DNA from: a virus
Strand: one strand, 5' to 3'
Length of the DNA stretch: 64,000 nt
IMG/VR virus record: IMGVR_UViG_3300040802_000094
Span: 20,956-84,955 of that record
The notes under the pieces: generated by a model
What the model saw: the letters and a program-made list of their open reading frames with translations, nothing else
Databases searched by the model: none
Told to the model about the DNA's origin: nothing
Translations under genes and position numbers: made by a program
Shown here: in pieces, positions 7,620-26,751 of the stretch
Layout of the letters: each line of letters starts with the position of its first letter
Numbering within the stretch: position 1 is the stretch's first letter

Positions 7620-7641
7620 CAATGACTCATTTTATTGCCCT

Positions 7642-7674
7642 ACCCCGGCTCGTTATTTTGCGAGCCGGGGTTTT
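7642..7674 (+). terminator. Terminator-like hairpin in the leader of the tail/lysis operon
   Basis: ACCCCGGCTCG-TTATTTTG-CGAGCCGGGGTTTT, 18 nt before ATG 7693. Confidence 0.6.
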
Positions 7675-7692
7675 GTCTTTGGATTTAAACTT

Positions 7693-9915
7693 ATGCCCGA
7701 CGACGCTTTAAACCTTTCGGACAACGACCTAGGGGTTTTTCCTATTCCGGCGCAATCGCCAGACGACGTGCGCGCCCTTCTCGCAGAAGAGCTGCAACTA
7801 GACCTACTGATCGCGCTGCGCAACCTACAGCAATCTCGTCCGCCCGCCGCCTGGATTCAAAGCCCCGGACTGCTCGAAGACGAAGGACTGGTATCCCTCA
7901 ACGGACGAGCCATTTTCCCGATTTACCCCGCAAGGGAAGTGGCGATCGATACTTCCGTCCAGATTCCCTTGCTTCCCGATGCGGTTGCCTCGGTCGTTCG
8001 AGAGGACTTCCTCTCCCTCGTGGCCGTCGTCGCAGAAGTAGGGGCGGAACAAGATCCCAACCTCGGCGACTTGACTTTTTACTACAACGTCGATCGCCCC
8101 GACGGATCGGTGGAGGTCGAGCAACGGACGAGTGAAAATGCCCGGAGACTTAGGGTCTTTCTGATCGTATTGCTATCCCCCCACTTTCCCACCAAGGAAA
8201 GTGTCAAGGCTTTGTTGAGGGCGCAGCACCCCGAAGACGTCGAAGACGCCTATCACCTGACGATCGCCAACAAAGAAAAAGAAGGGTTCGCGATCGCCGA
8301 TTCTCAGATATACGCTTTCGACCCGCACTTCCTCGAAAAGACCTATCGCATTTTCCCCGACTACTTAGAATTTTTGGGGATTTGCAAGGTTCGGCGATCG
8401 AAAAATCATTCTACTGGCGGCTACATCCCCGACGACGGAATCAGCATCCTCCCGTCGATCGAGCTGACGGATGACAATACGAACCTCATCGTCCGCCGAC
8501 GCTGGATCGAACTTGCCACGGGCATGAATTTGGCGGGGGATTACTTGCTTTCGGTCAAGAATCTGATCCCCGGAGCGATTTCTCAGCACCAAGGGGCGGA
8601 GGGGGAAACGGCCATTTCCCCGAACGGAGCCGGGGTACTGGCCAACGGCCAGAGGACCTCGTTTTCCAACCAGGCGATTTCGGATCGCCGTTCTTGTTTC
8701 AAGACGATCGCCACCAACGATGGGAACGATCGCCCGATCGTCGCGATCGAGGTCAAACCTAACTCTCCTGTCGGGACGAGGTTCAGCGATCGATCGGAAA
8801 TGCATCGAATTTACTCGATCGATGGAGTGGAGCAATCGAAGCTCGGTCGGTTCGCCCGTATTGGCGGGAGTCACGGCGTCCTTTCCTGGATCGGCGGCGA
8901 GTATTCGACGATCCGCCCGGGAGATCCGTGTTACTTCGCGCCTTGCATCAACTATCCTGCCGGATCCGGATTTTCCACTGCATTCAAGTCGGTCGAAAAA
9001 GTATGGTTTCACCTTCAAGAAATCCATTCCGACAATATTAGAGATGCAAGCAAAAACGACGTCCTAGAATACGAAGATCCGGCTGGCGACGAAGACTACA
9101 TCGTCGTCTGGTCTTGGGATCGGTCTGCAATTCACTATATTTACAAAAAAATAGAATTAACTGCGAATAGTTTTGGTGTTATTTTTGCGCCTTCCGAGAT
9201 CGGAGGAAATATCGCTTTCATCGAGGGGATCCAGACCGACGGTCGGCATCGAATCGACGCCCCCGTGGCGAGGGGGCTGGTACCGAACCATACCTATCGA
9301 TGCTTAGTCTATTACCCACCCAAGCCGGAAGACCTCTGGCAATTTCTGTTGAAGTATCCAAGGTATGAAGGAATCGGGAGAGAGGAACCCGATTTTTTGA
9401 ACGGTGCGGAAATTATTTCCGATCCGATCCTGTTCGTCCATACCCAAGGGGGTGGCAATCTCGTCTATCGAGGGGATTCAACTTATCGGTATTCCCCGAT
9501 CGCCCGCTACCTTCCTCGTCTGTCGGAAAATATTCCCTACCCCGACCACTCGCTCTACGGGCCGATTCATTTCTTCGGTGCGAACTACCCGGGACCCGTT
9601 ACTTGGGACGAGGCGCAGATCCAGGCAGCACCCGGAGTCGCACTGCCGATGCTCGGCCAAACCTTGGCGACATTTTCAAGGCAAAACGTTCACGAGCGAT
9701 CGCTCAATGTCGCCCTCGCTTTCGGCGGCAACGTCTTGGGTTTCCGTACTCCCTCGATGGCGCACGACCATCCCTTTCAGAGCGTGCTGATCTTTGCGGT
9801 TAAGAAGGAAAATGCAGTGCGCGTGGCGATCGCCACGCACAATAACGTTGGGGGGCAGACGGCGAAGCTCGATACGGATCTCGGTACGGCTATTGATATC
9901 TTTAAATTGGTGTGA
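7693..9915 (+). CDS. Hypothetical phage structural (tail/baseplate-associated) protein
   Basis: 740-aa ORF, first of a tightly coupled operon; no family recognised. Confidence 0.7.
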   Translation: MPDDALNLSDNDLGVFPIPAQSPDDVRALLAEELQLDLLIALRNLQQSRPPAAWIQSPGLLEDEGLVSLNGRAIFPIYPAREVAIDTSVQIPLLPDAVASVVREDFLSLVAVVAEVGAEQDPNLGDLTFYYNVDRPDGSVEVEQRTSENARRLRVFLIVLLSPHFPTKESVKALLRAQHPEDVEDAYHLTIANKEKEGFAIADSQIYAFDPHFLEKTYRIFPDYLEFLGICKVRRSKNHSTGGYIPDDGISILPSIELTDDNTNLIVRRRWIELATGMNLAGDYLLSVKNLIPGAISQHQGAEGETAISPNGAGVLANGQRTSFSNQAISDRRSCFKTIATNDGNDRPIVAIEVKPNSPVGTRFSDRSEMHRIYSIDGVEQSKLGRFARIGGSHGVLSWIGGEYSTIRPGDPCYFAPCINYPAGSGFSTAFKSVEKVWFHLQEIHSDNIRDASKNDVLEYEDPAGDEDYIVVWSWDRSAIHYIYKKIELTANSFGVIFAPSEIGGNIAFIEGIQTDGRHRIDAPVARGLVPNHTYRCLVYYPPKPEDLWQFLLKYPRYEGIGREEPDFLNGAEIISDPILFVHTQGGGNLVYRGDSTYRYSPIARYLPRLSENIPYPDHSLYGPIHFFGANYPGPVTWDEAQIQAAPGVALPMLGQTLATFSRQNVHERSLNVALAFGGNVLGFRTPSMAHDHPFQSVLIFAVKKENAVRVAIATHNNVGGQTAKLDTDLGTAIDIFKLV

Positions 9916-9917
9916 TC

Positions 9918-11570
9918 ATGAGCGACATTCAAGAGTCAATTAATTTCGCGATCGCTGGAGGATCTCTCAGTCTGATCGGGGATTACAACCCGACGTTTTC
10001 TCGTCCGTCGGCAATTTTCATGGAGTTGGAGGTTGGGGCGGACACGTCATTTCTTCCAGTCCGTTCCGGAGAGCCTGCCGTCTACGACGACGGCTCGGTA
10101 CTGATCGAGCCGGAATCAAAAAATTTCTTACCTTGGAATATCGGACTGGAGCGCCCCAATTGGTACAAGGGGAGCAATATTATCGTCCGCGCCAACCTCA
10201 GCAACGACAGCACTTCCCGGAGGGAGGGCGATCGCATTGCCGCCCTTTCTCCGAGCTATCCGCCTTCGACCCCAGAAGAAAGAGCGCAGCAGTCGATCCG
10301 GCAAGAGATAGATCTTACGGCAGGGGTTTATACGATTTATGCCTCCCTTAGCTTGAAGAATGGGATGTTCGGTGTGGCGGACGCTCTACGCTTGGTTGCG
10401 GGAGAGCGGGTTCTCGGTTCCGTTCAGTTGAACGAATTGAACGACTACCTGGACAAAAATCGGATTGTCGAATTCCAGGCCGAGGTGTCGGAAGCCGATT
10501 CGGGACTGTACTTGGAACTGTATATCGAGAATGCAGTGACGCTCCACTGGCGAGGCGCGCAAGTTGAGAACAAGCCTTTCCGGTCTTCCTTGATTTACCA
10601 GCACGTCACTCCGGAGACGCGATCGCCGACGGTCCTTCGCTACAACCGCAACCCGATTTCCGGCCTCAATACTTTTGGACTGTTTTGTCACCTCAAGTAT
10701 TGGAGGGGCGACGGCAATATTGCCAAATTTGGCAATCTTCACGCTTACATTGAGGGCGATTACTTAAAAGTAAAGGCCGGATCTTTGACGATCGAGTGTC
10801 CGGAGATCTTGCCGAAAAAGGATCTCCGTTTTTTCGTTCAAGTATCGTCGGAAGCGCAAACGATCGCCCTGTACCTGAACGAAACACTCGTGGCAAAAGG
10901 GGCAATCCAGGGGTTCCGTCCCAGCCAGGATTCGGTAATCTTTGATTCGGAAGGGGTGCGCTGCCTGTCTTCCTGCTTCACGACGACTCGATTGATGAGT
11001 GACGGGCAAATCGCGATCGGCGAAGTTGCCTTGGAAGACGTCAAAAACCTATTCATTCCCGACATTATCTCGTTCGAGCTGATGTCGGTTCAGTCCTCGA
11101 TGCTGCTCCTGAATCCGATAACGATTCCGGCTGCCGCGACCGATCCGGACGTCGATCTCTTGATCCCCGGGTATGCGAGCGTTCGCCTGCCCTTTATCGC
11201 CAGCGACGCCCAGCCGATTCTCGACATTTTACCGGACGACAAAGTCAGAATTTCTTCGACTTTGAGTTTTGAGGTAGGGATGGCGATCGTTACGTCGCCA
11301 TCGTTTTCGATCGAGGTAGAGGTGGTCGAAAACGACAGGCTGTCCAACGTCCTGACGCTTTCCTCTGCAGCATTTTTGAATGTCGGCGACACGATCGCCC
11401 AAGCAAAAGCCCAGACGGAAGTAGAGGTCGATCCTCAAAATTACTACGTAGATCTGCTCGCTAGCGCCCCTGGAGTCAAGATTGCGCAAAAGTATATCAA
11501 CGGCTTCATTCTCTCGAATCAAAATACCGAACCCAAGACCGTTTCCCCTTCAATTTATATCAAGCACTAG
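9918..11570 (+). CDS. Putative tail fibre/spike protein with a LamG/concanavalin-like region
   Basis: GSVLIEPESKN resembles the 'GLLIE...TN' phage fibre motif; 'W.GAQVE...SSLI' motif; beta-rich 'IALYLNETLVA' segment. Confidence 0.6.
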   Translation: MSDIQESINFAIAGGSLSLIGDYNPTFSRPSAIFMELEVGADTSFLPVRSGEPAVYDDGSVLIEPESKNFLPWNIGLERPNWYKGSNIIVRANLSNDSTSRREGDRIAALSPSYPPSTPEERAQQSIRQEIDLTAGVYTIYASLSLKNGMFGVADALRLVAGERVLGSVQLNELNDYLDKNRIVEFQAEVSEADSGLYLELYIENAVTLHWRGAQVENKPFRSSLIYQHVTPETRSPTVLRYNRNPISGLNTFGLFCHLKYWRGDGNIAKFGNLHAYIEGDYLKVKAGSLTIECPEILPKKDLRFFVQVSSEAQTIALYLNETLVAKGAIQGFRPSQDSVIFDSEGVRCLSSCFTTTRLMSDGQIAIGEVALEDVKNLFIPDIISFELMSVQSSMLLLNPITIPAAATDPDVDLLIPGYASVRLPFIASDAQPILDILPDDKVRISSTLSFEVGMAIVTSPSFSIEVEVVENDRLSNVLTLSSAAFLNVGDTIAQAKAQTEVEVDPQNYYVDLLASAPGVKIAQKYINGFILSNQNTEPKTVSPSIYIKH

Positions 11571-11579
11571 GAGGTCGAG

Positions 11580-11999
11580 ATGCCCGATCAGAATCTAGAT
11601 CTGTATCCGGAGGACTTTCCAGATACTCTCAATACGGATTTAACAGTAGAACAAACCTTAATCCTCCACGCTTGGAGGATCCGTCGGCTGCAATCCTTTC
11701 GGATCCAGGGAGGGGCGATCGAGCTGTCTGCGTTGATCTCCGGACAGAACTTGAACGTCTATACCTCGAACGAGAGGCTCCCCTCCCTCCCCCAGATGAT
11801 TTCTGAAAATAACATCCTCGCGGGGGAGGAGGGCGATCGCCTCCTTCAGGAAAAAAGATACCTCTCCTTGCAGGAGAGCCAAGTAGGGACGGCAACTACC
11901 ATTTTGGAGATGCAGTCCACGATCGCCCAGATGAGTCAAGAGATTTCGGATCTGCGGACGTTGATTTACGAAATCACGGGTTCCGCCATCGATAACTAA
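11580..11999 (+). CDS. Hypothetical protein with C-terminal coiled coil
   Basis: GGAGG RBS; in operon. Confidence 0.7.
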   Translation: MPDQNLDLYPEDFPDTLNTDLTVEQTLILHAWRIRRLQSFRIQGGAIELSALISGQNLNVYTSNERLPSLPQMISENNILAGEEGDRLLQEKRYLSLQESQVGTATTILEMQSTIAQMSQEISDLRTLIYEITGSAIDN

Positions 12000-12015
12000 A
12001 GGATGCTGCGCCACC

Positions 12016-12231
12016 ATGGCACTAGAACAAAAAATTACAGAGTTGATCTCGGCGACCAGCCATCTTGTCGCCGACGGCAAGAAAAATCAAGAAGCGGCGA
12101 TGTCTAGCGCTCAAAAAGCACTGGCACAAATCACCGCACTGGAACGTAGAGTCAAGGCGATCGAGGAGGCGATCGACAAAGCCAAAACGATGGAAGAGTT
12201 GAAGCGAATGGTAGAAAAAGGAGGCGCGTAA
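12016..12231 (+). CDS. Small coiled-coil protein
   Basis: 71 aa with heptad pattern; directly upstream of the endolysin candidate. Confidence 0.65.
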   Translation: MALEQKITELISATSHLVADGKKNQEAAMSSAQKALAQITALERRVKAIEEAIDKAKTMEELKRMVEKGGA

Positions 12232-12234
12232 TCG

Positions 12235-13002
12235 ATGGGTATCTTTGTCGAACCCCTGCCGAAATCTCACTGTCTCTTCAAGAAAAGGCCGTTATCGAGC
12301 GTGTCGATTCCCGGGGAGACGGTAAGAATTGAGGAAAAGGTGGAAATCTCCGAGTACTCCCTTCCTCCCGAGCGAAAGCACATTCGTGTCCGATGGAAAA
12401 ATCTCGATTGGTTCGTTTTTGCCGAACATTGTCAGATCTTCGACGGAGGCAAAAAGGTTTGGCCGGAAGAGGTTCCGAGTAAGGTTTGCCTGGATCTCCC
12501 TTATTTGTCTCAGCTCGACAATTACGAAAATCCGACGGGTTCGTGCAACGTCACGAGCATGGCGATGTGCTTCCGCTACTTTGGGGTCGAGAGAGACCCG
12601 AATTATTCGAGATTTTCTCAGCTCGAAGACGAACTTTATAACGTGATGCTCGATTGCGGGCGATCGCGGCATTCGCCCCAAGATCTCAAGTGGCTTGCCG
12701 AGCGTTACGGCATCGACGATCGCTTTACGGTGAAGGCCACCCTCCAAGAAGTAAAAACCTGGCTGGCAAATGGAAACCCCGTCGTCGTCCACGGCTACTT
12801 TACGAGCTTCGGCCATATTATTGCCATCAAGGGGTATGACGACGTCCTCCAATCCTTCGTCGTCAACGATCCGTATGGCGAGTATTTCGATTCGGGATAC
12901 CGCACGGATCTCACTGGGGAATCTCTCAATTATTCGTACGATCTAATCCGAAGAACGTGCATGGATGACGGAGATTTCTGGGTTCATTTTTTATCCAAAT
13001 AG
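12235..13002 (+). CDS. C39-like (papain-fold) peptidase, probable endolysin
   Basis: LPYLSQLDN...GSCNVTSMAMC, HGYFTSFGHIIAIKGYD, VNDPYGE (Q/C/H/D catalytic set of Peptidase_C39_2). Lysis role inferred from phage context. Confidence 0.85.
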   Translation: MGIFVEPLPKSHCLFKKRPLSSVSIPGETVRIEEKVEISEYSLPPERKHIRVRWKNLDWFVFAEHCQIFDGGKKVWPEEVPSKVCLDLPYLSQLDNYENPTGSCNVTSMAMCFRYFGVERDPNYSRFSQLEDELYNVMLDCGRSRHSPQDLKWLAERYGIDDRFTVKATLQEVKTWLANGNPVVVHGYFTSFGHIIAIKGYDDVLQSFVVNDPYGEYFDSGYRTDLTGESLNYSYDLIRRTCMDDGDFWVHFLSK

Positions 13003-13031
13003 AATAATTACGATCGCAGAAAGGGTGCGAG

Positions 13032-15458
13032 ATGTTTCGACTGAAGTCTAATTTACATAATTCGAGATTCAGGCGATGGTTTCCCACCGTCTTTCGGTTG
13101 ATAGACGCGATCGACTACTGGCACTGGTGGCATTTTCGTCACGTCGAAGACATTAGGGCGGGGCTAGATACGGTTCCCGCCGTATTTGTTCTGTGGAGCA
13201 AAAACGAGGGCGTTCGACAATTAAATAACGAATACCTCGCCTCTTTTTCGGAAGAGTGGGGAACTCAGTTCTCCGAGTTATTTGATATCTCGGAACAAAT
13301 TCAGCAGTTTCGAGACTCGCCTCGCCAGGAAATTGTTTACGACGTTTCCTTTCCGATGAACGATGGCAAGTCAAAAGTCGATTATATTTTCTTCTTCCGG
13401 AAGTACGATCGCGGCAACAAGATCATTGCGGTAGGACTCGATATTTCCGATCAAAAAGTTGTCGAGCGGGAGCTTAAGAATGCCTATTCCCAGCAAAAAA
13501 CAATCCAAATTATTTTAAATCGCATCCGAACGTCTTTAGAGATAGAAGAAACGCTGCAGCTTGCCTGCGAAGAGGTTCGCAAGGAGTTGAGCTGCAGTCG
13601 CGTAGTGATCTATCAGTTCAACTCCAGTTATTCGGAGGGATGGGTATGTTCGGAATCGATCGACGACAAAATTGGCTCGATTCGCGGGAGGGATTTGGAA
13701 GACCCTTGTTTTAACAAGGTTGCCAAAGAATATATTCGGAAAGGCTTTGCCGTATGCAGCGACGTTCGGAATACGCAAAGTTGCTACAAAGAAATGCTGC
13801 TCGGACTCAACGCCAAGTCCAGTCTCACGGTGCCGATCATGGAGGAAGACAAGTTGTGGGGGCTGATGGCGTGCCACCAACAAGAGCCGTTCTATTGGGA
13901 CGAAAGGGCGATCGTTTTAGTTAGGGAAGTTTGTCGCCAGCTTCAAATTGCGGTACAGCAGCACAAGCTTTACGAACAATTGCGCTTGCGCGAGCAACAA
14001 CTCAAGGTAGATCTGCAGCGAGAGCAGCTTTTACTGGAAGACGGCTTGGTTGGAGTTTTGAGATTGAAGTGGAATAAATCTCAAGATTTCACGATCGGCT
14101 ACGTTCAAAATTCAGAGCAGTTTTTTCGCAGCTCTTCGAGCGCGATGTCCGGAAAGAATTTCTTGGACTTTATTCACCCCCAAGACCGAGATACTTTCCT
14201 CGCGGTTTGCGAGGCGATCGTTTCCGGGACGACGGGAAATGACGATATTTTTTACCGAGTTGTCGATGCGAACAGGCAAATAAAATGGGTTTATAACTTC
14301 GTTCGTGTCGCCAGAGCGCACGAAGCGGAAATTGAGATCGACGGCTACATCGTTGACGTGACGAGCTACAGGCAGGCCGAAGAACGGGCGAAACTACTCG
14401 TAAGCTCTTTACCCGTATTCATTTTCGCGATCGACAAAGAGAATCGATTCGCCCTTTGCGAAGGAAGGAATATCCGGGGAATCCCTTCTCAAATCGTCGG
14501 GCAAAACGTGATTGAGGTTTACGCCAATCTCAACTGCTTTGAGGTTGGCGAGGCGATCGAAGCGGCTAGGGCGGGAGATCCCCTCAAAAAGACCTTCAAC
14601 TTGAACGGTCAGTTTTATCGCCATTACTTTACGCGATCGGAAAACGAAGAATCCGTCTTGGGAGTCGCTTTCGACGTGACGGACTTGACGATCGCCCAGC
14701 TCGCCCTAGAGAAAGCGAGTCAAGAAATGGAGGCATTCTTGCATTTCACGTCTCACGACTTGCAGGCTCCCTTGCGAACCGTATCGAATTACCACAAGCT
14801 ATTTCTACGTCACCTTCAAAAGCAATACTCGCTGACGCCGGAGGCCGACCCCGTACTTTCGAGTCACACCGAAAAAATCCAAGCATCCCTGGAGCGGGAA
14901 CGTCGGTTGATCGAGGATCTCCTGGCTTTTTCGAGAATCAACCGGGTCGAGTCCGACATCGAACTTCTCGATCTGAACGAAATTTTAAACTCCGTAAAAG
15001 CCGTCCTCGCCGATCGCATTACCGAAAATAGAGCCACAATCTTTTGCAGGCAAACCCTGCCGACGCTGTGGGGCGATCGCACTCAAATCGAGTCGGTATT
15101 CCAAAACCTGTTAAGCAATGCGATTAAATTCCAAAGGCCGGATCTAGACCCCGAAATACGAATCGAATGCGAAGAAAGGCTTCTCGACGGGGAGCGCGCG
15201 TGGTACTTCCGGTGGATCGACAACGGTATCGGCATCGCCCCCTTGGACGGCAGCAAAACCTTCGAGGAAGCGGCGGAAGCTATCTTTTCCCCGTTCAAAA
15301 AAATGCATTCTTCCTCCTATTCTGGGACGGGGATAGGGCTTGCCGTCGTCAAAGCCGTCATCGAAAAACACCGAGGTAAGGTGTGGGCTTCGGAGAACCC
15401 TTCGGGGGGGACCATTTTTCACCTGCATCTCCCAGAAGGAAAGGGGAGGGAGGTATGA
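13032..15458 (+). CDS. Sensor histidine kinase with DXCF cyanobacteriochrome GAF, PAS domains, HisKA and HATPase
   Basis: IRTSLEIEETLQ...RVVIYQF...ES...LEDPCF...SCYKEML...SLTVPI...LWGLMACHQ...W (CBCR GAF); FIHPQDR (PAS); SHDLQAPLRTV (H-box); NLLSNAIKF, DNGIGI, GTGIGLAVVK (N, G1, G2 boxes). Confidence 0.93.
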   Translation: MFRLKSNLHNSRFRRWFPTVFRLIDAIDYWHWWHFRHVEDIRAGLDTVPAVFVLWSKNEGVRQLNNEYLASFSEEWGTQFSELFDISEQIQQFRDSPRQEIVYDVSFPMNDGKSKVDYIFFFRKYDRGNKIIAVGLDISDQKVVERELKNAYSQQKTIQIILNRIRTSLEIEETLQLACEEVRKELSCSRVVIYQFNSSYSEGWVCSESIDDKIGSIRGRDLEDPCFNKVAKEYIRKGFAVCSDVRNTQSCYKEMLLGLNAKSSLTVPIMEEDKLWGLMACHQQEPFYWDERAIVLVREVCRQLQIAVQQHKLYEQLRLREQQLKVDLQREQLLLEDGLVGVLRLKWNKSQDFTIGYVQNSEQFFRSSSSAMSGKNFLDFIHPQDRDTFLAVCEAIVSGTTGNDDIFYRVVDANRQIKWVYNFVRVARAHEAEIEIDGYIVDVTSYRQAEERAKLLVSSLPVFIFAIDKENRFALCEGRNIRGIPSQIVGQNVIEVYANLNCFEVGEAIEAARAGDPLKKTFNLNGQFYRHYFTRSENEESVLGVAFDVTDLTIAQLALEKASQEMEAFLHFTSHDLQAPLRTVSNYHKLFLRHLQKQYSLTPEADPVLSSHTEKIQASLERERRLIEDLLAFSRINRVESDIELLDLNEILNSVKAVLADRITENRATIFCRQTLPTLWGDRTQIESVFQNLLSNAIKFQRPDLDPEIRIECEERLLDGERAWYFRWIDNGIGIAPLDGSKTFEEAAEAIFSPFKKMHSSSYSGTGIGLAVVKAVIEKHRGKVWASENPSGGTIFHLHLPEGKGREV

Positions 15459-15520: not shown

Positions 15521-15931
15521 ATGCTCAAAATTCTTTACATAGAAGACTCGGAGGACGACTATGAATTCTTCAAAATTGCCTTTGAAGGAAAGGCGGATGT
15601 CGAGTGGGAGGAAAGTGCGAGGTTCGCCCTCGACTCGCTCAAGCAAAGGAGAGTCGCGGACTATCCTGACTTGATCTTTCTCGATTTAAATTTAATCGGC
15701 ATTTCCGGACTTGAGTTCTTAGAACTGCTTCCCCGAGAAGCCCCTTACGTCCTCGCCAAAGTGCCGATCGTTATTTTTACCTCAAGCGCGTATTATAACG
15801 ATATCGACATGGCTTACCTACATCGAGTCTCCAGCTATATCAGAAAACCCCTGGACATAGACGAACTTTGCGATTGCGCTGAAGTGGTCTGCCAGTTTTA
15901 CGGGCAAACCTGCATTCTTCCCACAAAATGA
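15521..15931 (+). CDS. Single-domain response regulator (Rcp1-like)
   Basis: ILYIEDSEDD, PDLIFLDLNL, IVIFTSS...DIDMAY, SSYIRKP; pattern typical of phytochrome-partner receivers. Confidence 0.92.
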   Translation: MLKILYIEDSEDDYEFFKIAFEGKADVEWEESARFALDSLKQRRVADYPDLIFLDLNLIGISGLEFLELLPREAPYVLAKVPIVIFTSSAYYNDIDMAYLHRVSSYIRKPLDIDELCDCAEVVCQFYGQTCILPTK

Positions 15932-16833
15932 CCAATACTGAATCCGTAATTCACCTTATCGAAGATTCGGACAGCGATGCCGACGTTGCCGAAATACTTT
16001 TGAATGAGGCGGGGTTTAGGGTGTTTCGATATCCGACGCTTTCAAAGGAACGACTGATCCGCAATATCGAAAAATATCCGGAGACGAAGCACATCGTTTT
16101 GTTGGACTTATTCGGAGTTTCCCCGGAGTCGCCAAAGGAAATCATTGAAAACGTTCAAGGATGTTTCCAGTCGCGCCAGGATGTCGATATCGAAATTGTC
16201 GTCCTTTCTGGCGGATCGAGTCCCGAACTTGTTCAGATGGTGAAGTCCCACGGGTTGCAGTTTCTGTCGAAAAATGAAGCCCTCGACCCCGACACCGACA
16301 CCTTGGCGGTCAACCTCAAGCAAATCCAACAAGATCGGGGAATTGAAAAAAGTATATGGATACTGGAATCGAAGCTAGATCAACTGCATTTGAGGCACCA
16401 GATGGCGGTCGATCGCTTCTCTCAGGAAATCGGCTCGATTCAAACCGCCTACCAGGAAGTTCACCGACTGGTGTATAGCTTGGAAGCAAGACAGAATCGC
16501 GACGAAAGCGATCGCCTCGCCGGAGGGCAAAATGTCGAACGACACCTCAAAGGACTGGAGGTCAAAATTCAGGAACGAATCGATCGCATCCAGGAAAATT
16601 CCGAAGCGACGAAGGTTTTACAGTACCTCGTCCCTCTCGCCGCTCAATTCCGGCATAACCAAATTGGAGAAGACGAATTCAGGGCGATGGCTCAAGCCAT
16701 TCGCTCGATCGTATTGATCAAAAAAAATCCCAAAAAGGCGATCGGGTTGGCCCTCCTGTTCCTGACACTAATGGCGAGCGCCCAGGATCGAATTGTCGCC
16801 CTCCTTCGTATGGTATTTGAGATTTTTAAGTAG
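15928..16833 (+). CDS. Receiver domain plus coiled coil plus C-terminal transmembrane segment
   Basis: IHLIEDSDSD, IVLLDL, IVVLSG, FLSK (REC residues retained); long coiled coil; KKNPKK-AIGLALLFLTLMASA; ATGA overlap with the previous gene. Confidence 0.8.
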   Translation: MTNTESVIHLIEDSDSDADVAEILLNEAGFRVFRYPTLSKERLIRNIEKYPETKHIVLLDLFGVSPESPKEIIENVQGCFQSRQDVDIEIVVLSGGSSPELVQMVKSHGLQFLSKNEALDPDTDTLAVNLKQIQQDRGIEKSIWILESKLDQLHLRHQMAVDRFSQEIGSIQTAYQEVHRLVYSLEARQNRDESDRLAGGQNVERHLKGLEVKIQERIDRIQENSEATKVLQYLVPLAAQFRHNQIGEDEFRAMAQAIRSIVLIKKNPKKAIGLALLFLTLMASAQDRIVALLRMVFEIFK

Positions 16834-17150
16834 ACTTAATTTTGGGGACTTGTACTGTCTGTCCGGAATGGAGATCCCAAATTGTCGTGCGGTTGTAAAG
16901 CAAAAATCGTTTGTAGCGATCGCCGGGAAATTTATTTTTCTTCAAAAAAAGTGGAAGGGGATCTCGATACGATCGCAATTCCGCCTCTCGGTAGCGGGGA
17001 AGCTTGAAGGGAGGACGTCGATTTAATCGCTCCCAGAAAGGGGTTGAGGGGTTGGCCATTTTGTCGAGCTATCGTGCTATCCTAAAATCTGAGCGATCGC
17101 TATTCGAGCCGAGAGCGATCGCTCTTCACAAAATAGTATTACAAAACCGT

Positions 17151-17185
17151 AAAGCGCGGGGACGTTGCAGTCCCCGCGCTTTTTT
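17151..17185 (+). terminator. Terminator-like hairpin directly before the head operon
   Basis: AAAGCGCGGGGAC-GTTGCA-GTCCCCGCGCTTTTTT, 14 nt before ATG 17200. Confidence 0.65.
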
Positions 17186-17199
17186 GTTTGGAGCGAGTT

Positions 17200-18906
17200 A
17201 TGTCCGATCAATTCATCGAAGCCATCGGCAAAACCCTCAGCCAGAAAAATGTTTCGCGACTCAAGGAAATTTGGTCGTCGCTTACTGAGCTGCTGGCGAG
17301 TACGGGAAACCTCGAAATAGAAGATCTACCAAAAACTTTAATCGACCCGCAATCTCAATACGACCTTCACAATATGGAAGGAGAGATTGCCGCTTCCGGG
17401 CGAAAAGGTATTGATGTCGGCGCGCAACTCGAATGTACGGCGTGGGCTGCAAAAGTCAACAGGCTCGCCGACATTTTCGCTCTTTTGTTGCGTACTTATC
17501 CTAGGGTATTCAAATACGAACAAGAGGGTGAAGCCGAATTCGAGCCTCCCGAAGAACGGCTCAGCCGACTGCTGAAGGAGATAACGGACGCCGCTTTTTT
17601 GCTTTGTAAGGAAAAACCAGACACCCGCTCAAATGCGGATATTTATGCGAGTTCGGGAGAGGGAGAAAAAGAAGACTTCGGCGATCCTTCAATATCCAAG
17701 GCCGAAGGGGAAACGGAGTCCGAAAGTACTTCGGATGTCGAGACCGAAACCTTGATGGCAAGAGATCTCGCGGAAGCCGAAGGCGAGGTTCGCGAAGTTT
17801 TCAATATTGAAATTGCCGCGCGAGCGATGCCGACCGCCAAGAAGGCCGCCAACGAAAGGCCGATCGACGGAATCCTCTTCCAGGTCGATCGGCCCAGCGA
17901 GGCAATTCCGGAAGTGGGGCCCGGCTTGCCCCTGTTGATTCCGAAAGAGGTCGCCCTGGCGGCGATCGCGGACATCACCCCCGGGAAACCAAAACCCTTG
18001 GACGCGCACGACACCTTCGCCCGCCATTCCAACCGAGATATTGTCGGCGCCATGACCAGCGCCTACCTCGAAGGAGACGACCTCGTCGTCCAGGGAGTCC
18101 TTTGGGATTACAACCAGCCGGACAAGATTCAGGCGATCGGCCAGGAGACACAGCGTCTCGGCATGTCCGTCAATGCGACAGCCGACGGACATGTCGCCGA
18201 GTGGGGCGGAACGAAAGTCTGGCAGGTAGATCGCCTGCAGATCTTGGGTGCAAACATCTTGTTTTCGGATAAAGCGACTTTCAAGCGGACGCGGATTATT
18301 CGCGCGATCTCGAAATCTTCTTTGGGGGATTTCGAGCAGCCGATCGCGGCGCGGGCGGAAGATTCGCCGGACTCGGAAGACCTGCCTTTAAACAAAACCT
18401 TCGACCCAGAAGAGGACACCATGAGTAACGAAGCAATTTCACAGCAAATACAAGTGATCGCAAGCTCAGTCAAGGAAGTTCAGACGATCTTCGCCCAGGA
18501 ACTGGAAGCGTTGCAGGAAGCCGTCCGAGACCTGAGTACGCAAGTCTCGGATATCCAGTACGAACGGGAGCAAAGTCAGAGTTCGATCCAGGCTGCCGCG
18601 CAAGAAGAAGCCAAGCAGAAAGAAAGAGAGGATTTGCTGGCATCGATCGCCGAAGTCGTTGACGCAAAACTGGCGAATCTTCCCGGTCCTCGGCGAGCGG
18701 GCTACAGCATTCCACTTGCCGCGTCGAGTCCGCCTTCGGCAACGGCTGGCGATCGGAAAATGGAAATCCAACTGCAATTGAGCAAGTTAAACGGACAGAT
18801 TGAGGTAATGCAGCGAGATCCCAATATGTCCGGCTCTCCAGAAATCATTTCGTTGATCGACAACCGTCGCCAGCTCGTCGCCCAACTAGAATCCTTCGCC
18901 AACTAA
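17200..18906 (+). CDS. Prohead protease/scaffold fusion protein
   Basis: Central protease-like core (FARH...IVGAMTSAYLEGDDLVVQGVLW...LGMSV...ILGANIL), acidic linker, C-terminal coiled coil; lies immediately upstream of the MCP. Confidence 0.75.
   Translation: MSDQFIEAIGKTLSQKNVSRLKEIWSSLTELLASTGNLEIEDLPKTLIDPQSQYDLHNMEGEIAASGRKGIDVGAQLECTAWAAKVNRLADIFALLLRTYPRVFKYEQEGEAEFEPPEERLSRLLKEITDAAFLLCKEKPDTRSNADIYASSGEGEKEDFGDPSISKAEGETESESTSDVETETLMARDLAEAEGEVREVFNIEIAARAMPTAKKAANERPIDGILFQVDRPSEAIPEVGPGLPLLIPKEVALAAIADITPGKPKPLDAHDTFARHSNRDIVGAMTSAYLEGDDLVVQGVLWDYNQPDKIQAIGQETQRLGMSVNATADGHVAEWGGTKVWQVDRLQILGANILFSDKATFKRTRIIRAISKSSLGDFEQPIAARAEDSPDSEDLPLNKTFDPEEDTMSNEAISQQIQVIASSVKEVQTIFAQELEALQEAVRDLSTQVSDIQYEREQSQSSIQAAAQEEAKQKEREDLLASIAEVVDAKLANLPGPRRAGYSIPLAASSPPSATAGDRKMEIQLQLSKLNGQIEVMQRDPNMSGSPEIISLIDNRRQLVAQLESFAN
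18421..18906 (+). CDS. Probable nested in-frame scaffold protein (internal start)
   Basis: AGAGGA-CACC-ATG in frame at the start of the coiled-coil region; same arrangement as lambda C/Nu3. Confidence 0.5.
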   Translation: MSNEAISQQIQVIASSVKEVQTIFAQELEALQEAVRDLSTQVSDIQYEREQSQSSIQAAAQEEAKQKEREDLLASIAEVVDAKLANLPGPRRAGYSIPLAASSPPSATAGDRKMEIQLQLSKLNGQIEVMQRDPNMSGSPEIISLIDNRRQLVAQLESFAN

Positions 18907-18911
18907 GAACT

Positions 18912-20024
18912 ATGGGTATTTCTTTTGCCTCGCCACAAATGGCGCAAAGGCTGGATTCGTTCGGATTCCAGCGCTCTTACGACTTACAAGCAGCCGCAAC
19001 TCGACTCGACGGATCTTTTCTGACCCATCGGGACGACTTCATGTCAACGATCGGACACTATATCAGAAACAGTCAGGACGTCCGGCTGTGGAAGATGATC
19101 CGGAAGGAGTTGGCGGAAGCGGATCTGAACAGAGAGGCTATCGAGGGACAGGATCCCGAGTCCGGCTTCATGAGCAAGAACAACATGAACCCTCCCGTCA
19201 ACGACGTCGCAAATCCGGCGTCGCACGATTTAAGCGATCCGGGTCAACTCAATAAAGCGATCGGAGGAATCATCCAGACCGGGCATTATACCGAAAGTAT
19301 GTGGAGGCAGCAGGGCAAGCCCTACGGAAATCAGCTCTCCGATCGCACGATGAAGCTGATCAGCTCGATGGTCAAGAATGTCGAGCGCGCTTTATTTCGG
19401 GGCAATGCCACGACAAACCCCCTCGAATTTAACGGACTGGAGCAGCAAATGGATCCCACCCATTTGTTCGAGGCGGATATTACGGCAGGTGACTCGGTAG
19501 TCAAGAAGTTGCGAGGGATCGTCCGCCTGTCAATATCCGACGAAACGATCCTGAGATCGGTCACGCACATCTTCACGACAGCGTTGGGCGTCCAGCTTCT
19601 CGAAGACGAGACAGACATGAAGCTGGAATACCACAACCTCGATCGCGTTTCTCCGGGGCTGTCGGTTCCGTCGATCGTCACACATCGCGGGCTGATGCCT
19701 ATCGTGGACTCCCCCTTCCTTCGGGACGAGAAAGGGGCGACCGACGCCGACCCCGACTATATTGACTACTGGCTGCTCGACATTAATTCGCTGTGCTGGA
19801 AAGGGGTTATTCCGAAAGGGGCGAACGTATCCAATCCCAACAGCCCTTCCCCGTCGGATTTCGACCCGCAGATTTTCGACATCACGCGATACACCGGAAT
19901 GGGCGACTTGATGGTCGAAACCCGTATCGGCCTGATGTATGGCACGCTATATGCCAAAAACAGAGGACAGGGGATTTGGAAATTGAGAGTTAAAGTTCCG
20001 CCGCTAACCGTCGCTTCAATTTAA
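18912..20024 (+). CDS. Major capsid protein (HK97 fold)
   Basis: 370 aa after the protease/scaffold; VERALFRGNATTNPLEFNGL matches the E.A.F.G.....EFDGL MCP motif. Confidence 0.8.
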   Translation: MGISFASPQMAQRLDSFGFQRSYDLQAAATRLDGSFLTHRDDFMSTIGHYIRNSQDVRLWKMIRKELAEADLNREAIEGQDPESGFMSKNNMNPPVNDVANPASHDLSDPGQLNKAIGGIIQTGHYTESMWRQQGKPYGNQLSDRTMKLISSMVKNVERALFRGNATTNPLEFNGLEQQMDPTHLFEADITAGDSVVKKLRGIVRLSISDETILRSVTHIFTTALGVQLLEDETDMKLEYHNLDRVSPGLSVPSIVTHRGLMPIVDSPFLRDEKGATDADPDYIDYWLLDINSLCWKGVIPKGANVSNPNSPSPSDFDPQIFDITRYTGMGDLMVETRIGLMYGTLYAKNRGQGIWKLRVKVPPLTVASI

Positions 20025-20028
20025 GTAA

Positions 20029-20505
20029 ATGTCTCTCGTCCGATCGACGCCCAAGTGGGCTGCCAACCAAATCCAAGTTCCGGGAGTCGGGAGGGTTTTT
20101 CGCCCGGTCTCCAACGCCATCGTTACGATGCCCGACGAAGTTGCCGCGTGGCTGGCGGAAAATGGGTTCGTCGAAATTGTCGGCGGCCTCCCGTCACCCC
20201 CTCCGGGGATACCCCGCTCCGTCAAAAAGGAAGGAGGGCGATCGCCGGATCCTCCTCTCGGTTCGTCACCTCCACCTTCCCCCATGCAAGAAGGATCCGG
20301 CGAGGAGACGTGGAAGTCTCTTTTGTTGGAGTATCTAGAACGGTCTCCCGCAGAGGAGATCATTGAGAATGTTCGGGGAATCGGTCGGGAAACGGCGGAA
20401 GCGATCGCCGACCTCCCAAGGCCGCTAACCTGGGAATCGGTCGAGTCCGTGCTGAAACCCGCACAAATCCGAAACTTGAAAAAATTCTTAGGAGAGGAGG
20501 AGTGA
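20029..20505 (+). CDS. Head-associated protein with Pro-rich linker and helix-hairpin-helix motif
   Basis: ENVRGIGRETAEAIA (HhH); follows the MCP. Confidence 0.65.
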   Translation: MSLVRSTPKWAANQIQVPGVGRVFRPVSNAIVTMPDEVAAWLAENGFVEIVGGLPSPPPGIPRSVKKEGGRSPDPPLGSSPPPSPMQEGSGEETWKSLLLEYLERSPAEEIIENVRGIGRETAEAIADLPRPLTWESVESVLKPAQIRNLKKFLGEEE

Positions 20506-21041
20506 TGCCACTCATTACGTCTCACGTCAGCCAGTCCCTCGGGGCGATCGCTCAGTCCTTGATCGAAACGAAACCCAAATTAATCGCCGCGACGGTTCGG
20601 AGGAAGGCGGAAGCTTTCTCCTACGAGGCCGGACAGGCGGTTGTTCCGTCGGAAGCGAAACTCCTGACTTTTGCGCGGTGTATCCCCGAAGGGGGGAACT
20701 CGCTCCTTCTTTCAGCTCAGTTAATTTCCAAGAAGGGGTTTTCCGGAAAGCTGCTCTTGTTTTCTGGATGCCCGTCGCCCCCCGAAGACGGGAAGGCGGT
20801 TGACCCTTCCCGGGACGACATTCGGAAGTTCCTATTTTCTGTCGATTTCTCCGACCCTCTCGCCAAGGTAGAAGAGATCGGAGAGTTTCAGTCAATTGAG
20901 GTCGTTTCCCACAAAATTGCGGAAAGCGCCGATCGAAACTTGTACGGAATTCTCGTCGCGAAAGAGCCTTACGCGGCGATCGCCGAAGAAGAGTTCCTCA
21001 TCCGGCTTGGCTTCTTTCCCAGAGAACTCAGGATGATCTGA
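20502..21041 (+). CDS. Hypothetical virion protein
   Basis: Coupled ORF with GAGGAG RBS in the head operon. Confidence 0.65.
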   Translation: MMPLITSHVSQSLGAIAQSLIETKPKLIAATVRRKAEAFSYEAGQAVVPSEAKLLTFARCIPEGGNSLLLSAQLISKKGFSGKLLLFSGCPSPPEDGKAVDPSRDDIRKFLFSVDFSDPLAKVEEIGEFQSIEVVSHKIAESADRNLYGILVAKEPYAAIAEEEFLIRLGFFPRELRMI

Positions 21042-21047
21042 TTTGTT

Positions 21048-21683
21048 ATGCCTTACCTAACCCCAGAAGAAGCCCGAGATCGCCTGCTCTCGTCGGGGAG
21101 GTACGAAGAAAGTACCCTCCCCGACGCAGGCGTACTCGGGCTTTTGCTGGAGGATATCGAAGAACGCATCGATACTTGGCTGGGATACCACGCGCCTCTA
21201 ACGGATTACGTAGAAGAATACCGAGTCGATCCGAAAGGGGTCGTCGTCCTGTCTGGCTTCCCCGTCGCCTCAGTACGACAAGTAGAAATACTTTACGGGA
21301 TCGAGACGAACAATGCGGAGCAGTCTCCAACCGAAATAGTCACTTCCGGCTATTGGCTTCGCGGCAATATCGTCGGACTCGGGGGCTGTCCCGGCGATCG
21401 CGTCCGGATCTCCTATTCCGCAGGACTAGATCCGCTACCCACCCGTTTTAAATTGGCCGCGTACAGGCTGTTGCTCGAAGTTTTGGAGAAAGACGGGACG
21501 AGTGGCTCTACCGATTCTTTGGACGCGATCGCCCGTCCCGTCACTTCGCTGTCCGTCCCCGGAATTTCCAAATCTTTCCAGCTCGGGAAAGACCCCGATA
21601 GCGGCAAGCCTTTTGGCGAATTCAAGCGGATCGACGAAATCTTGAGTCGGCTCAAAACCGATCGGAGAAAATTCTTATGGTAA
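21048..21683 (+). CDS. Head-tail connector/adaptor (gp6/gp15-like)
   Basis: MPYLTPEE...IDTWLG...PVASV...VRISYSAG.DPLP.RFKLAA pattern; position in the head module. Confidence 0.7.
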   Translation: MPYLTPEEARDRLLSSGRYEESTLPDAGVLGLLLEDIEERIDTWLGYHAPLTDYVEEYRVDPKGVVVLSGFPVASVRQVEILYGIETNNAEQSPTEIVTSGYWLRGNIVGLGGCPGDRVRISYSAGLDPLPTRFKLAAYRLLLEVLEKDGTSGSTDSLDAIARPVTSLSVPGISKSFQLGKDPDSGKPFGEFKRIDEILSRLKTDRRKFLW

Positions 21684-21964
21684 AAGAAAAGTCAATTTTT
21701 AAATCTAAAACCTTATGGGTTTCGGTTCTTACTTTTTGTTACGGGATCATGCCCGTCCTTCAGGATGCCTCCGCGACAGAAAAATTTACGCCCGCCCACC
21801 TTTTCGAGATTTTCAATTTTGCCGTACTGATGGGCGCGACGATTTTGACGCGATACCAGGGGAACAGTTCCGTCCTCTTTACACCAAAGGGGTTGCCCGG
21901 GATCGACCCGGAGCAGGCCAAGTACATGGCCGAAGTTTTCAATCAATCCATGAAAAATGAGTGA
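21677..21964 (+). CDS. Holin-like small membrane protein (2 TM)
   Basis: KSIFKSKTLW followed by two hydrophobic segments; 95 aa. Confidence 0.5.
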   Translation: MVKEKSIFKSKTLWVSVLTFCYGIMPVLQDASATEKFTPAHLFEIFNFAVLMGATILTRYQGNSSVLFTPKGLPGIDPEQAKYMAEVFNQSMKNE

Positions 21965-22397: not shown

Positions 22398-23957
22398 GTG
22401 GCAGAGGAAGAAACCAAACCGATCGAGGCAGAAGAGGAAGAGGAAGAAAAAGAGGAGGGCGAAAAAGAAGGCGAAACGGATGCCGTCGAAGAAATGCAGG
22501 AAGAATCGGAAGACGGAGAAGAGGAAGATGTCGAACCCGAATACGAAGGGCCTCCGGGGCCGCGATACAAAACCTTAATCGAAGTCAAGATCGGCAAAGA
22601 TACTTTTTCCAATGTCAACGGAGATTTCCTCGACTATCCGACGTGCAAAATCGTACTGTCAACTTGGTTATTTTCTAACGCACAGTTCGTCTTGAACGAC
22701 CCGGATGGGGAGATTTTTGAGAAGATCGACGATAGCTCCGAGGTCGTAATTTCCTTGGGGTTTGCCGGAGCCGAAAAGAAAAAGAAGCTGACGGGAAAGA
22801 TTTATTCGATCGGACGCATTCTCCCTATCGGTACCGTCGTTAGTATTGCCGACGCTACGGCCACGATGAACCGCCCGACAACTTCCGTCAATTCGGACTC
22901 GGATGGGACGGCGCCGTCCCCCGAAGACACCCCCGAACCTTGGGACGATGTCGTTTACACCACGGGAAGTCTGCTATTTAAAAAATTCAAAGAGATGGCC
23001 GACAAGCACAAGGAAGAAGGGGGATCCCTCCCCGTCGTCAACGAAGACGGGGAGGAAGGGCAGAAAGAGGAAAAGAGCTTTGACGATATTGTCAAAACTT
23101 CCGAAAAAGTAAGCGCGCAAATGCTCGAAGAAGGAACGGCACCCAATAGGACGACGGCGAGGATGGCGGCTCTGTTTAAAGGGGTTGGCGGCCAACTCAA
23201 GGCCAAAGACCGAACCATCGCCAATCCCTCGAAAGGAGGAGAGGTCTTGGCGATGGCGTCGAGTATGAATGCGGCGATCGTCGAGTCGATCATGAAAGGG
23301 AACGTTATCGTAACGGAAGGGAACCAGGTAAAAGAGGTCTCTGCAGGAAAAGAAGAAAAAAGTAAAATTACGATCGACGTTGCCAACCACACGTTTTACG
23401 GCAATCCTCAAATTATCAAAAAAGGTCCCGTCCAACTGGCAAGGGCTTTCGTCAACGTCAGCAGTCCCGACGCGATCAACAAAACCGTACACAGCGCCAC
23501 GGTGGGAACGAAGCCTTCCGTTATCGACGCGAGCGGTCCGGTCAACGTCCCCGAATGGGGGGAGATCAACCTAGAAGATCCGATCGTCGAAGGCTCTCAG
23601 TACACCTGGAGCGACGCGACGGCGGGAGGCGCGCGCGTTCCGGAATCCAAGTCCGTGATGGAGGGGATCGCGCGCGTTTGCAAGTGGCTCGATAAATGGA
23701 CGAACGAAGAAAATGGCGGCGAGAAGTTTTTGATTACTTCGTGGTACCGCGAACCTGCCTATAATATGCAAGTGGCGTCGTCGGGGGCGAACGGCCCCCA
23801 CACGACGGGCAACGCCGTCGATTTTTGGTTCGAGAATTATCTGGATTTGTGCGACAAGTTGGATCCGGAGTGGGATGGCGGCCTTGCCTGGAGCCTCAAC
23901 TCCGAATTCATGCATGTCGATCTCGGCGCGCACGGGAGGTGGAGCTACGACCACTGA
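22398..23957 (+). CDS. Baseplate hub (gp27/gpD-like) fused to a Peptidase_M15 Zn cell-wall hydrolase
   Basis: Glu-rich N-terminus; FVLNDPDG...VVISLGFAG...LTGKI hub pattern; ITSWYR...YN...H..GNAVDF...FMHVDLG (M15). Confidence 0.8.
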   Translation: MAEEETKPIEAEEEEEEKEEGEKEGETDAVEEMQEESEDGEEEDVEPEYEGPPGPRYKTLIEVKIGKDTFSNVNGDFLDYPTCKIVLSTWLFSNAQFVLNDPDGEIFEKIDDSSEVVISLGFAGAEKKKKLTGKIYSIGRILPIGTVVSIADATATMNRPTTSVNSDSDGTAPSPEDTPEPWDDVVYTTGSLLFKKFKEMADKHKEEGGSLPVVNEDGEEGQKEEKSFDDIVKTSEKVSAQMLEEGTAPNRTTARMAALFKGVGGQLKAKDRTIANPSKGGEVLAMASSMNAAIVESIMKGNVIVTEGNQVKEVSAGKEEKSKITIDVANHTFYGNPQIIKKGPVQLARAFVNVSSPDAINKTVHSATVGTKPSVIDASGPVNVPEWGEINLEDPIVEGSQYTWSDATAGGARVPESKSVMEGIARVCKWLDKWTNEENGGEKFLITSWYREPAYNMQVASSGANGPHTTGNAVDFWFENYLDLCDKLDPEWDGGLAWSLNSEFMHVDLGAHGRWSYDH

Positions 23958-24034: not shown

Positions 24035-25375
24035 ATGGACCATCAAGAACTAACGATCCGCGCCCAGCAGATCAAGCAAAACACGCTCGAAGAATTGCAG
24101 GCGATCGAGTCGCGGGTCTGCGAACTCGAAAAACTCCACCTACTCCCCAAGCCGTTGAGACCGTTCGAGTCGATCGACCTAACCTGGCCCGCCGATCCGA
24201 AGGTCGAGGTCGTCAACTTGTCCGAAATCGACGACGGACTGGGAGGAGTTCTCCAGCCTTGCGCGATCGGGGACGACCGGATCGGCTTCGGAACCTACTT
24301 TTACGGTTACGAAGGGATGAAAATGGCGGTCTTGAACGTCAACGATCCGAGTCTTTCTTCTGTTTTCAACATCAAAGCCTCCACCCCCGACGATATCTAC
24401 CGGGTCAATAAGACGGTTTTTGACGGACGTTACTTGTACGCGATCGGGGATATCAATACCAAGACGAAGTACGACTCCCCCCAAAAGCTGATCCGCGTCG
24501 ATACGACGACCGGATCGGTTTCCTCTTTGGATTTTGGTGCGCCTCGGGGATTCGCTGCCGCCGTTTACGACGGCAGCCGCTTCCTTTACGCTTTCAGCCG
24601 ATACCACTATCGAACGAAGCCATATCAGACGATCGCGGAAGGGTACGTTACTAAAATCGATACGTACAACTTTTCTCTGGAGTACGTGGAAGAGATCGAT
24701 TTGAGGGCGATCGACGAATCCCTGACTGGATTCGCGGACGTCGTCAAAGTGGGGCGGTTTTTATTCGCAATTTCTTTATTGAATCAGCCTAACGGCGCTT
24801 ATTTTAATCGATTGGTCAAAATCGACACTTCGCTGTTTCCGATGCGGAAATCGGTCGAGTGGATCGACTGCCTCGAAATCGATAAGAAGCTGGGGGGGAT
24901 TGACTCGATCGCGACCGACGGAGAATACCTCTACTGTCCCGCCTACTATCGATACCATCTCAAAAAAGAAGATGACGGGAATTTCATGAGCTATCGCTCG
25001 GGACTCCTTTGGAAGATCTCAATTCAGGACTGGAAGGACAGAAAGGGGTACGAATGCTTGGATCTAGAGGCAGTTTCCCCGCGATTTCGAGGCCACATCT
25101 CGATCGCAATCGTCGGAAATAGGCTCTACATCCCGAGTTACCACAACCAGTCCGGCGACAATTACGATCCTGGGTGGGTTTTGTCTGTCGATAAAAACGA
25201 GTTTTCTTTGAAATCTCTTAAAAAATTAGAACTCGGCAAAATCGCGGGGCGGGGAGCGCAATTTCACGGGAACGGAATCGCGATCGGCGATCGCCTGTAT
25301 TTGTTCTCGTATTATTCGGCTGGTTCGCACGACAATCGAGTTATTTCATTTGAGGTGTTGAAAGATAATGGATAG
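24035..25375 (+). CDS. Beta-propeller protein 1 (FDGRYLY-type repeats)
   Basis: GAGGA RBS; repeats FDGRYLY, YDGSRFLY, TDGEYLY, GNRLY, GDRLY. Confidence 0.75.
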   Translation: MDHQELTIRAQQIKQNTLEELQAIESRVCELEKLHLLPKPLRPFESIDLTWPADPKVEVVNLSEIDDGLGGVLQPCAIGDDRIGFGTYFYGYEGMKMAVLNVNDPSLSSVFNIKASTPDDIYRVNKTVFDGRYLYAIGDINTKTKYDSPQKLIRVDTTTGSVSSLDFGAPRGFAAAVYDGSRFLYAFSRYHYRTKPYQTIAEGYVTKIDTYNFSLEYVEEIDLRAIDESLTGFADVVKVGRFLFAISLLNQPNGAYFNRLVKIDTSLFPMRKSVEWIDCLEIDKKLGGIDSIATDGEYLYCPAYYRYHLKKEDDGNFMSYRSGLLWKISIQDWKDRKGYECLDLEAVSPRFRGHISIAIVGNRLYIPSYHNQSGDNYDPGWVLSVDKNEFSLKSLKKLELGKIAGRGAQFHGNGIAIGDRLYLFSYYSAGSHDNRVISFEVLKDNG

Positions 25376-26738: not shown

Positions 26739-26751
26739 CGCGAGCGAGCAA

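Follow-up and report, generated by a model that had tools for sequence, protein, structure and literature searches.

The window analysed here is a 64,000-nucleotide (nt) stretch, positions 20,956–84,955, of the IMG/VR virus record IMGVR_UViG_3300040802_000094, an 85-kb virus contig from a microbial mat with a CheckV completeness estimate of 45%. At 15928–16833 lies a gene that, by the open reading frame (ORF) list and its translation, encodes a 301-residue protein, hereafter the target, built from an N-terminal receiver (REC) domain, a helical stalk and a C-terminal hydrophobic segment that is a candidate membrane anchor. It stands directly behind the genes of a histidine kinase and a small single-domain receiver. 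We think it probable that the target is a response regulator tethered to a membrane; it would be the second of two acceptors in a two-component system borne by the phage. The features of the target and of its gene unit given below all lie on the + strand and are numbered from the first letter of the window.

Receiver domain, stalk and C-terminal segment of the target

The receiver domain occupies residues 1–134 (15928–16329) and was assigned from the AlphaFold2 (AF2) fold, Foldseek, the family profile and invariant alignment columns. The motifs EDSDSD, LLD, LSG and SK, noted in the original prediction as signs of an intact domain, are found as E12-D13-S-D-S-D, L58-L59-D60, L93-S94-G95 and S114-K115, and both fold and profile agree with them. 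They supply the acidic pair E12/D13, the phospho-acceptor D60 (codon 16105–16107), S94 and K115, with F112 as the aromatic switch. D13, D60, G95 and K115 are invariant across the family alignments, which hold two viral orthologues and seven distant proteins of 242–335 residues retrieved with phmmer from 1.84 billion representatives (E 6e-7 to 5e-4). The AF2 model built from the family alignment has a (beta-alpha)5 fold over residues 1–134 (pLDDT 73–90), with strands and helices alternating over 7–134. The Foldseek matches listed from the PDB are receivers or receiver-containing proteins (E 9e-5 to 1e-3, TMt up to 0.78), and all ten structure matches listed for the ESM Atlas model carry a REC domain. 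Searched against PDB sequences, the family profile matched only receivers (NtrC1, RpfC, Rcp1 and CheY; best NtrC1, 1.6e-7). Several of the receivers matched by profile or fold continue into coiled coils, namely NtrC1, DctD, DgcR and 6oap.

The target itself has no Pfam match even at E = 10 and thus falls below the PF00072 gathering threshold; the REC assignment therefore rests on fold, profile and catalytic residues. PF00072 is matched at E < 0.01 by eight of the ten aligned proteins. Among those seen, P0004 (37 bits) and P0009 (62.9 bits), an outlier in architecture, are the only ones to exceed the cut-off of 30.2 bits; the orthologue at locus L003 (27.5 bits) and P0005 (27.3 bits) stay below it. 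Sequence and model together identify the N-terminal part of the target as a real receiver that looks phosphorylatable. The same Pfam searches of the target, down to E = 10, found no standard output domain, DNA-binding or enzymatic, which confirms the earlier remark that a helix-turn-helix, GGDEF or other standard output is absent.

The receiver is followed by a helical region at residues 138–264 (16339–16719), defined by AF2 secondary structure and a crude heptad score. AF2 places helices at 138–189, 196–244 and 248–264 with low pLDDT (52–69), and the crude a/d heptad score rises only between about residues 134 and 225. The segment had been described as about 130 residues of coiled coil; its length stands as predicted helix, and only about 90 of these residues look coiled-coil-like.

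The C-terminus begins with a basic collar, KKNPKK (residues 265–270; 16720–16737), read from the sequence and lying on the N-terminal (cytoplasmic) side of a hydrophobic helix at residues 271–285 (16738–16782; Eisenberg <H> 0.75, muH 0.14), the candidate tail anchor. The last element is an amphipathic helix at residues 286–301 (16783–16830; muH 0.54, <H> 0.10; AF2 helix 286–300) of low net charge. Hydropathy and helical moments agree with this succession of collar, hydrophobic helix and amphipathic tail as first proposed, and the L003 orthologue, modelled by AF2, is laid out like the target.

The best case for an anchor comes from comparison. Nine family members have the same architecture (20–28% identity), and in every one of them the hydrophobic maximum of the whole protein lies 5–32 residues from the C-terminus, as expected of a tail anchor; in the target, the collar is on the N-terminal side and hydrophobicity is borderline. 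The hydrophobic character of this segment is kept across the family while its sequence is not conserved, and substitutions within it between close orthologues exchange one hydrophobic residue for another. Positional conservation, hydrophobic swaps and a basic collar are the usual signature of a lipid-facing anchor, so that the segment is probably, by prediction, inserted into a membrane.

Several observations weigh against a membrane-tethered second acceptor. The hydrophobic core is only 15 residues long and a naive Hessa-type sum is positive; the Kyte-Doolittle maximum is 2.23 in a 15-residue window and 1.60, a borderline value, in a 19-residue window. In some relatives positive charge is greater behind the segment than ahead of it, a pattern that would suit an anchor lying in the plane of the membrane or forming a hairpin better than one that spans it. 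AF2 confidence is low over residues 135–301. The genomic contexts compared are three only, those of the window's contig and of two relatives, L002 on contig G001 (189 kb, 98% complete) and L003 on contig G002 (189 kb). Finally, it is gene order only that suggests the phage kinase would phosphorylate D60 of the target.

Since membrane insertion is a prediction, the target may instead be a soluble receiver/coiled-coil adaptor with the logic of FrzS and AglZ, its C-terminal hydrophobic helix packing in a bundle or against a protein interface outside the membrane. The short core and borderline hydropathy would suit such a protein, as would the amphipathic character of the flanking helices and the AF2 result, which shows only low-confidence helices there. 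A hydrophobic maximum that always falls at the extreme C-terminus of very divergent members argues the other way, as do the hydrophobic-for-hydrophobic substitutions and the basic collar that precedes them, and we hold the soluble adaptor to be quite unlikely.

The gene unit, its kinase and the distribution of the family

We describe as one unit the + strand genes between the two strongest terminator-like hairpins, at 7642–7671 and 17151–17182. The unit opens with two large unannotated proteins (7693–9915 and 9912–11570) that have no PHROG or Pfam match and whose tail-fibre role is assumed from position only, followed by two small non-membrane ORFs (11580–11999 and 12016–12231). Next comes a C39_2 papain-like peptidase, a possible lysin (12235–13002; PF13529, 7e-21; phrog_10051 'endolysin', 3.7e-19), whose gene ends 29 nt 5' of that of an 808-residue soluble GAF-PAS-HisKA-HATPase histidine kinase (13032–15458; Pfam domains), the presumed phospho-donor. 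A 136-residue Rcp-like single-domain receiver (15521–15931; PF00072, 6e-13) separates the kinase from the target, and the ATG of the target overlaps the stop codon of this receiver gene by 4 nt (ATGA). The unit is closed 3' of the target by the hairpin at 17151–17182, which the terminator scan reports as strong, with a 13-bp stem and a T-run; a 354-nt spacer leads from the target to the scaffold and capsid genes.

No segment of the kinase is hydrophobic at the threshold used, its GAF/PAS sensors are cytoplasmic, and in its catalytic core it matches bacteriophytochrome kinases. The GAF domain (about 13494–13985) matches those of cyanobacteriochromes: 6oap (1e-20), NpR6012g4 (1e-17), TePixJ (about 1e-14), AnPixJg2 and Slr1393g3. 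One of its Cys residues aligns with the bilin-binding Cys and precedes a Tyr, as it does in miRFP670nano, and the DXCF position reads D-P-C-F; by these residues the kinase is a candidate dual-Cys photoreceptor kinase. The L003 orthologue of the kinase has lost the canonical bilin Cys, so light sensing may not be general in the lineage. The best PDB matches of the 136-residue receiver are RcpB (1e-15), a bacteriophytochrome response regulator, RcpA and Rcp1. Because kinase core, GAF domain and small receiver all match in this way, the system reads, at the level of sequence, as a kinase/Rcp pair of the phytochrome type, with an anchored receiver in addition.

Two translationally coupled receivers behind one kinase, neither with an output domain, would also suit a phosphate sink or decoy, in which the tethered receiver would itself produce no output but siphon phosphoryl groups away from phage or host kinases, thereby shaping signalling by the Rcp-like receiver. 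Such a sink would need neither a 130-residue stalk nor a conserved anchor, yet the family keeps both, and we regard this explanation as very improbable. BLASTP finds no detectable similarity between the target and the 136-residue receiver, so the two operon receivers are not recent duplicates.

Loci L002 and L003 both hold a 301-residue orthologue of the target and, in unchanged order, the kinase (27% identity to that of L003, 2e-47), the Rcp-like receiver (34%) and the anchored receiver (22%); the 4-nt overlap of the two receiver genes is seen in the window and in L003. Since the orthologous trio recurs in both, the sequence comparison marks kinase, receiver and anchored receiver as an old module of this phage lineage. 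The family as a whole appears rare and very divergent (about 20–25% identity), found in phage contigs and metagenomes, with its architecture kept and its sequence not. The nearest ESM Atlas neighbour of the target is a mostly viral cluster of 67 members (score 0.92), and among BFVD structures it best matches a 298-residue 'response regulator protein' of an uncultured myovirus, which aligns from end to end.

Other searches returned little. The word-based homologue search gave the target itself as sole match. None came from 50,697 phage records when these were searched by tblastn with the target and with the L003 orthologue, nor from megablast of the target region. Related-locus searches confirmed no locus, whether run with the target, P0004, P0005 and P0006 in viral contigs of IMG/VR or with alignment A2 or P0005 in metagenome contigs; a search with an alignment of the kinase core returned only the L002 and L003 contigs again. 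The genome-contig scan gave one weak, REC-only match in a Saprospiraceae metagenome-assembled genome, and no stand-alone copies of stalk and anchor were found among shorter proteins. Three further matches were discarded: P0002 (1518 residues, E 6.5e-8) is a spurious family member, a zf-PARP protein of 65-residue repeats whose weak repeat scores add up; the ESM Atlas feature matches of the C-terminal half (DUF1515 and others, score 0.76) lie below noise level; and a Pfam CdvA match falls short of significance (E 0.034; 14.6 bits, where the cut-off is 30).

The HIP1 octamer GCGATCGC occurs at 91 sites against 3.4 expected, an excess that makes a cyanobacterial host almost certain. The capsid protein is 37–38% identical to the capsid of G001 and G002, both viral contigs, and has no match among the 50,697 GenBank phage records; the phage is thus a large cyanobacterial virus of an uncultured, little-known lineage. 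At 48787–63999 a single open frame of more than 5071 residues extends beyond the window's end; HIP1 sites are very abundant in it.

Just upstream of the unit, at 5757–7553, lies a 598-residue reverse transcriptase with a C-terminal HNH domain (phrog_1423, 1e-95), a protein typical of a group II intron, and an RNA contig reaches a depth of about 100 at 7400–7567. Long metatranscriptome contigs from two runs of the same mat sample cover 8851–13178, with the fibre and C39 genes, and 17167–20400, with the head genes. Over the kinase–receiver stretch only short RNA pieces of low depth occur, with none at 16080–16947. A part without cover says nothing on expression, and RNA contigs cannot rank it.

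Proposed mechanism and the question of lysis

For a membrane-tethered second acceptor, phosphorylation of D60 would alter pairing at the alpha4-beta5-alpha5 face and with it the register or oligomeric state of the stalk, as in other receiver–coiled-coil proteins; phospho-control of oligomerisation is a reasonable extrapolation from regulators of that type. The stalk would relay the change to the tails, which would sit in the plasma or thylakoid membrane at its cytoplasmic face, with KKNPKK on the inside. As the target has no DNA-binding or enzymatic domain, its output would be a membrane event or a membrane-bound partner and not transcription. Timing of lysis is the leading single candidate for such an event, if on balance an improbable one; alternatives are the pilus or phototaxis machinery, thylakoid functions and superinfection exclusion.

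The original prediction went further and took the target for a possible phospho-switched holin/antiholin. On that view, a lethal membrane lesion made or gated by the C-terminal helices would free the C39-like peptidase, and D60 phosphorylation would set the time. What stands of this proposal is the layout of REC domain, stalk and C-terminal anchor, and the presence of the C39_2 peptidase upstream within the terminator-bounded unit, in which the target is the sole gene with a membrane-type segment. In L003, the trio adjoins another lysin-like protein, with GH19 and M23 domains.

The wider claim fits poorly. Neither the target nor its relatives match a PHROG or Pfam holin or lysis family; a lone marginal PHROG match of one aligned family member to 'hemolysin' (E 0.009) was not counted as a lysis family. 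Holins are typically under 150 residues, with one to four clear transmembrane (TM) segments and a charged hydrophilic C-terminus, whereas the target has 301 residues, a single short and marginal membrane segment and a tail that is amphipathic, not charged. Two genes separate the target from the C39_2 peptidase, and the link to a lysin is not kept by orthology: the orthologue of the peptidase in G001 and G002 is the last head-operon gene, by the capsid, some 60 kb from the trio and without a TM neighbour, and the GH19+M23 protein of L003 has no homologue in the window's contig. More holin-like candidates exist elsewhere in that contig, above all two tandem paralogous 86-residue ORFs upstream of the window (G000:C1:7104-7364 and 7488-7748), each with two to three strongly hydrophobic segments, which by sequence appear the most holin-like of its small membrane proteins. 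We therefore judge the holin/antiholin role unlikely, and the version in which the target itself forms the pore a good deal less likely still.

Two further genes of the structural module may be recorded here. A 95-residue ORF at 21677–21964 has two moderately hydrophobic segments and no PHROG match. A 519-residue protein at 22398–23957 has an acidic N-terminus, and its last 80 or so residues match endolysin phrog_894 (1.4e-5), with metallopeptidase-type His/Asp motifs recognised by eye; given its place in the structural module, it is probably a virion-associated wall hydrolase.

A phage with a stand-alone receiver inside its lysis cassette keeps lysis timing in view. In the cultured Alteromonas phage V22 (L013, MN877442), the genes run tail fibre, chaperone, papain-like amidase, ORF29, receiver ORF30, a protein with an N-terminal TM segment and the two-TM, holin-like ORF32, and the stretch noted around ORF30 is 24947–27038. 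ORF29 is small, with an N-terminal hydrophobic segment and a coiled coil, and ORF30, annotated as a 'hybrid sensor histidine kinase - response regulator', is a stand-alone receiver of 149 residues. The gene for the N-terminal-TM protein is overlapped by an unannotated ORF with a lipobox (LTGC) at 26492–26791, the two forming a spanin-like pair, so the receiver sits between the amidase and spanin-like plus holin-like genes. The V22 amidase is not detectably homologous to the C39 protein of the window. In R8W, likewise a cultured Alteromonas phage, the receiver gene G48 follows the endolysin gene g43 by five genes and the holin gene g46 by two (PMC8228385). With one such gene in each of these two phages, a receiver within a phage lysis region is, by analogy between them, a recurring and unexplained arrangement. 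By analogy only, it lends some weight to a link between the target and lysis; against that, the V22 receiver shares only generic REC similarity with the target family (hhalign E 1.7e-4, probability 49%).

Joining the candidate photoreceptor kinase to this arrangement gives a light-gated lysis timer, in which the dual-Cys kinase would read light colour or day and night and phosphorylate the tethered receiver, whose stalk would then release or block a membrane lesion or the true holin, letting the virus burst its host at a chosen time of the diel cycle. We consider this decidedly improbable.

Comparison with known systems

Response regulators nearly always end in a DNA-binding or enzymatic domain. 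A stalk and anchor as the sole output of a receiver, in a virus that also encodes its own photoreceptor-type kinase, would, if true, mean that phages carry private circuits acting directly at host membranes. Should the circuit set lysis time or alter photosynthetic or pilus membranes by light, it would explain in molecular terms why cyanophage infection depends on light and on the diel cycle, and would amount to a compact light-to-membrane switch. Exact-phrase literature searches for membrane-anchored response regulators returned no paper; membrane-anchored output regions on response regulators find mention only as rare cases peculiar to single lineages, such as archaeal MetOD3 (PMC5847659). 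The literature searched regards phage receivers, those of V22 and R8W included, as auxiliary metabolic genes of PhoB- or CheY-like type (PMC8228385, PMC7289586). Neither a kinase nor a receiver comes up in a paper that deals with cyanobacteriochrome-like folds in phages (PMC12481020).

Among the nearest receivers outside the family is P0009, a metagenome protein of 262 residues in which PF00072 (3.7e-17) is joined to the C-terminal domain of KaiA (PF07688; 8.8e-5, which passes the Pfam cut-off), giving a KaiA3-like architecture of the clock type. It has the SGN-type beta4 motif in common with the family but lacks the hydrophobic tail, and the stalk and anchor of the family are not similar to the KaiA C-domain. 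A KaiA-like reading of the family was rejected: the family's C-terminal profile aligns with the C-terminus of P0009 at an hhalign probability of 1%, PF07688 is matched by P0009 alone, and the C-terminal fragment of the target has no match to it at E = 10.

The holins and antiholins lambda S105/S107 and T4 T/RI/RIII are comparable in that a membrane segment occurs in a late-gene unit with a possible lysin, and control of oligomerisation is a shared idea. They differ from the target in size, in the number and strength of TM segments, in the charge of the tail and in the target's want of a family match. To our knowledge, no holin or antiholin carries a receiver domain. V22 ORF30 and R8W G48 (annotated PhoB) resemble the target as phage receivers without an output domain, encoded after tail-fibre genes and a papain-like hydrolase; unlike it, they are separate small proteins with no phage kinase, and their similarity to it is of the generic REC kind.

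Closer in architecture are NtrC1, the receiver-linker of DctD, DgcR and the FrzS/AglZ proteins of Myxococcus, in which the receiver likewise passes directly into a long helix. In regulators of this type, phosphorylation controls dimerisation or a change of register. Their stalks lead to an ATPase, a cyclase or a polar-targeting coil, never to a membrane anchor, and sequence homology to the target is confined to the receiver. Closest in circuit design are Cph1/Rcp1 and the bacteriophytochrome pairs, which share with the phage system a phytochrome-class kinase, an Rcp-type receiver and the lack of a DNA-binding output. Pairs of the Cph1/Rcp1 type have one soluble receiver, whereas the phage adds a translationally coupled receiver with stalk and predicted anchor, and encodes all of these components itself.

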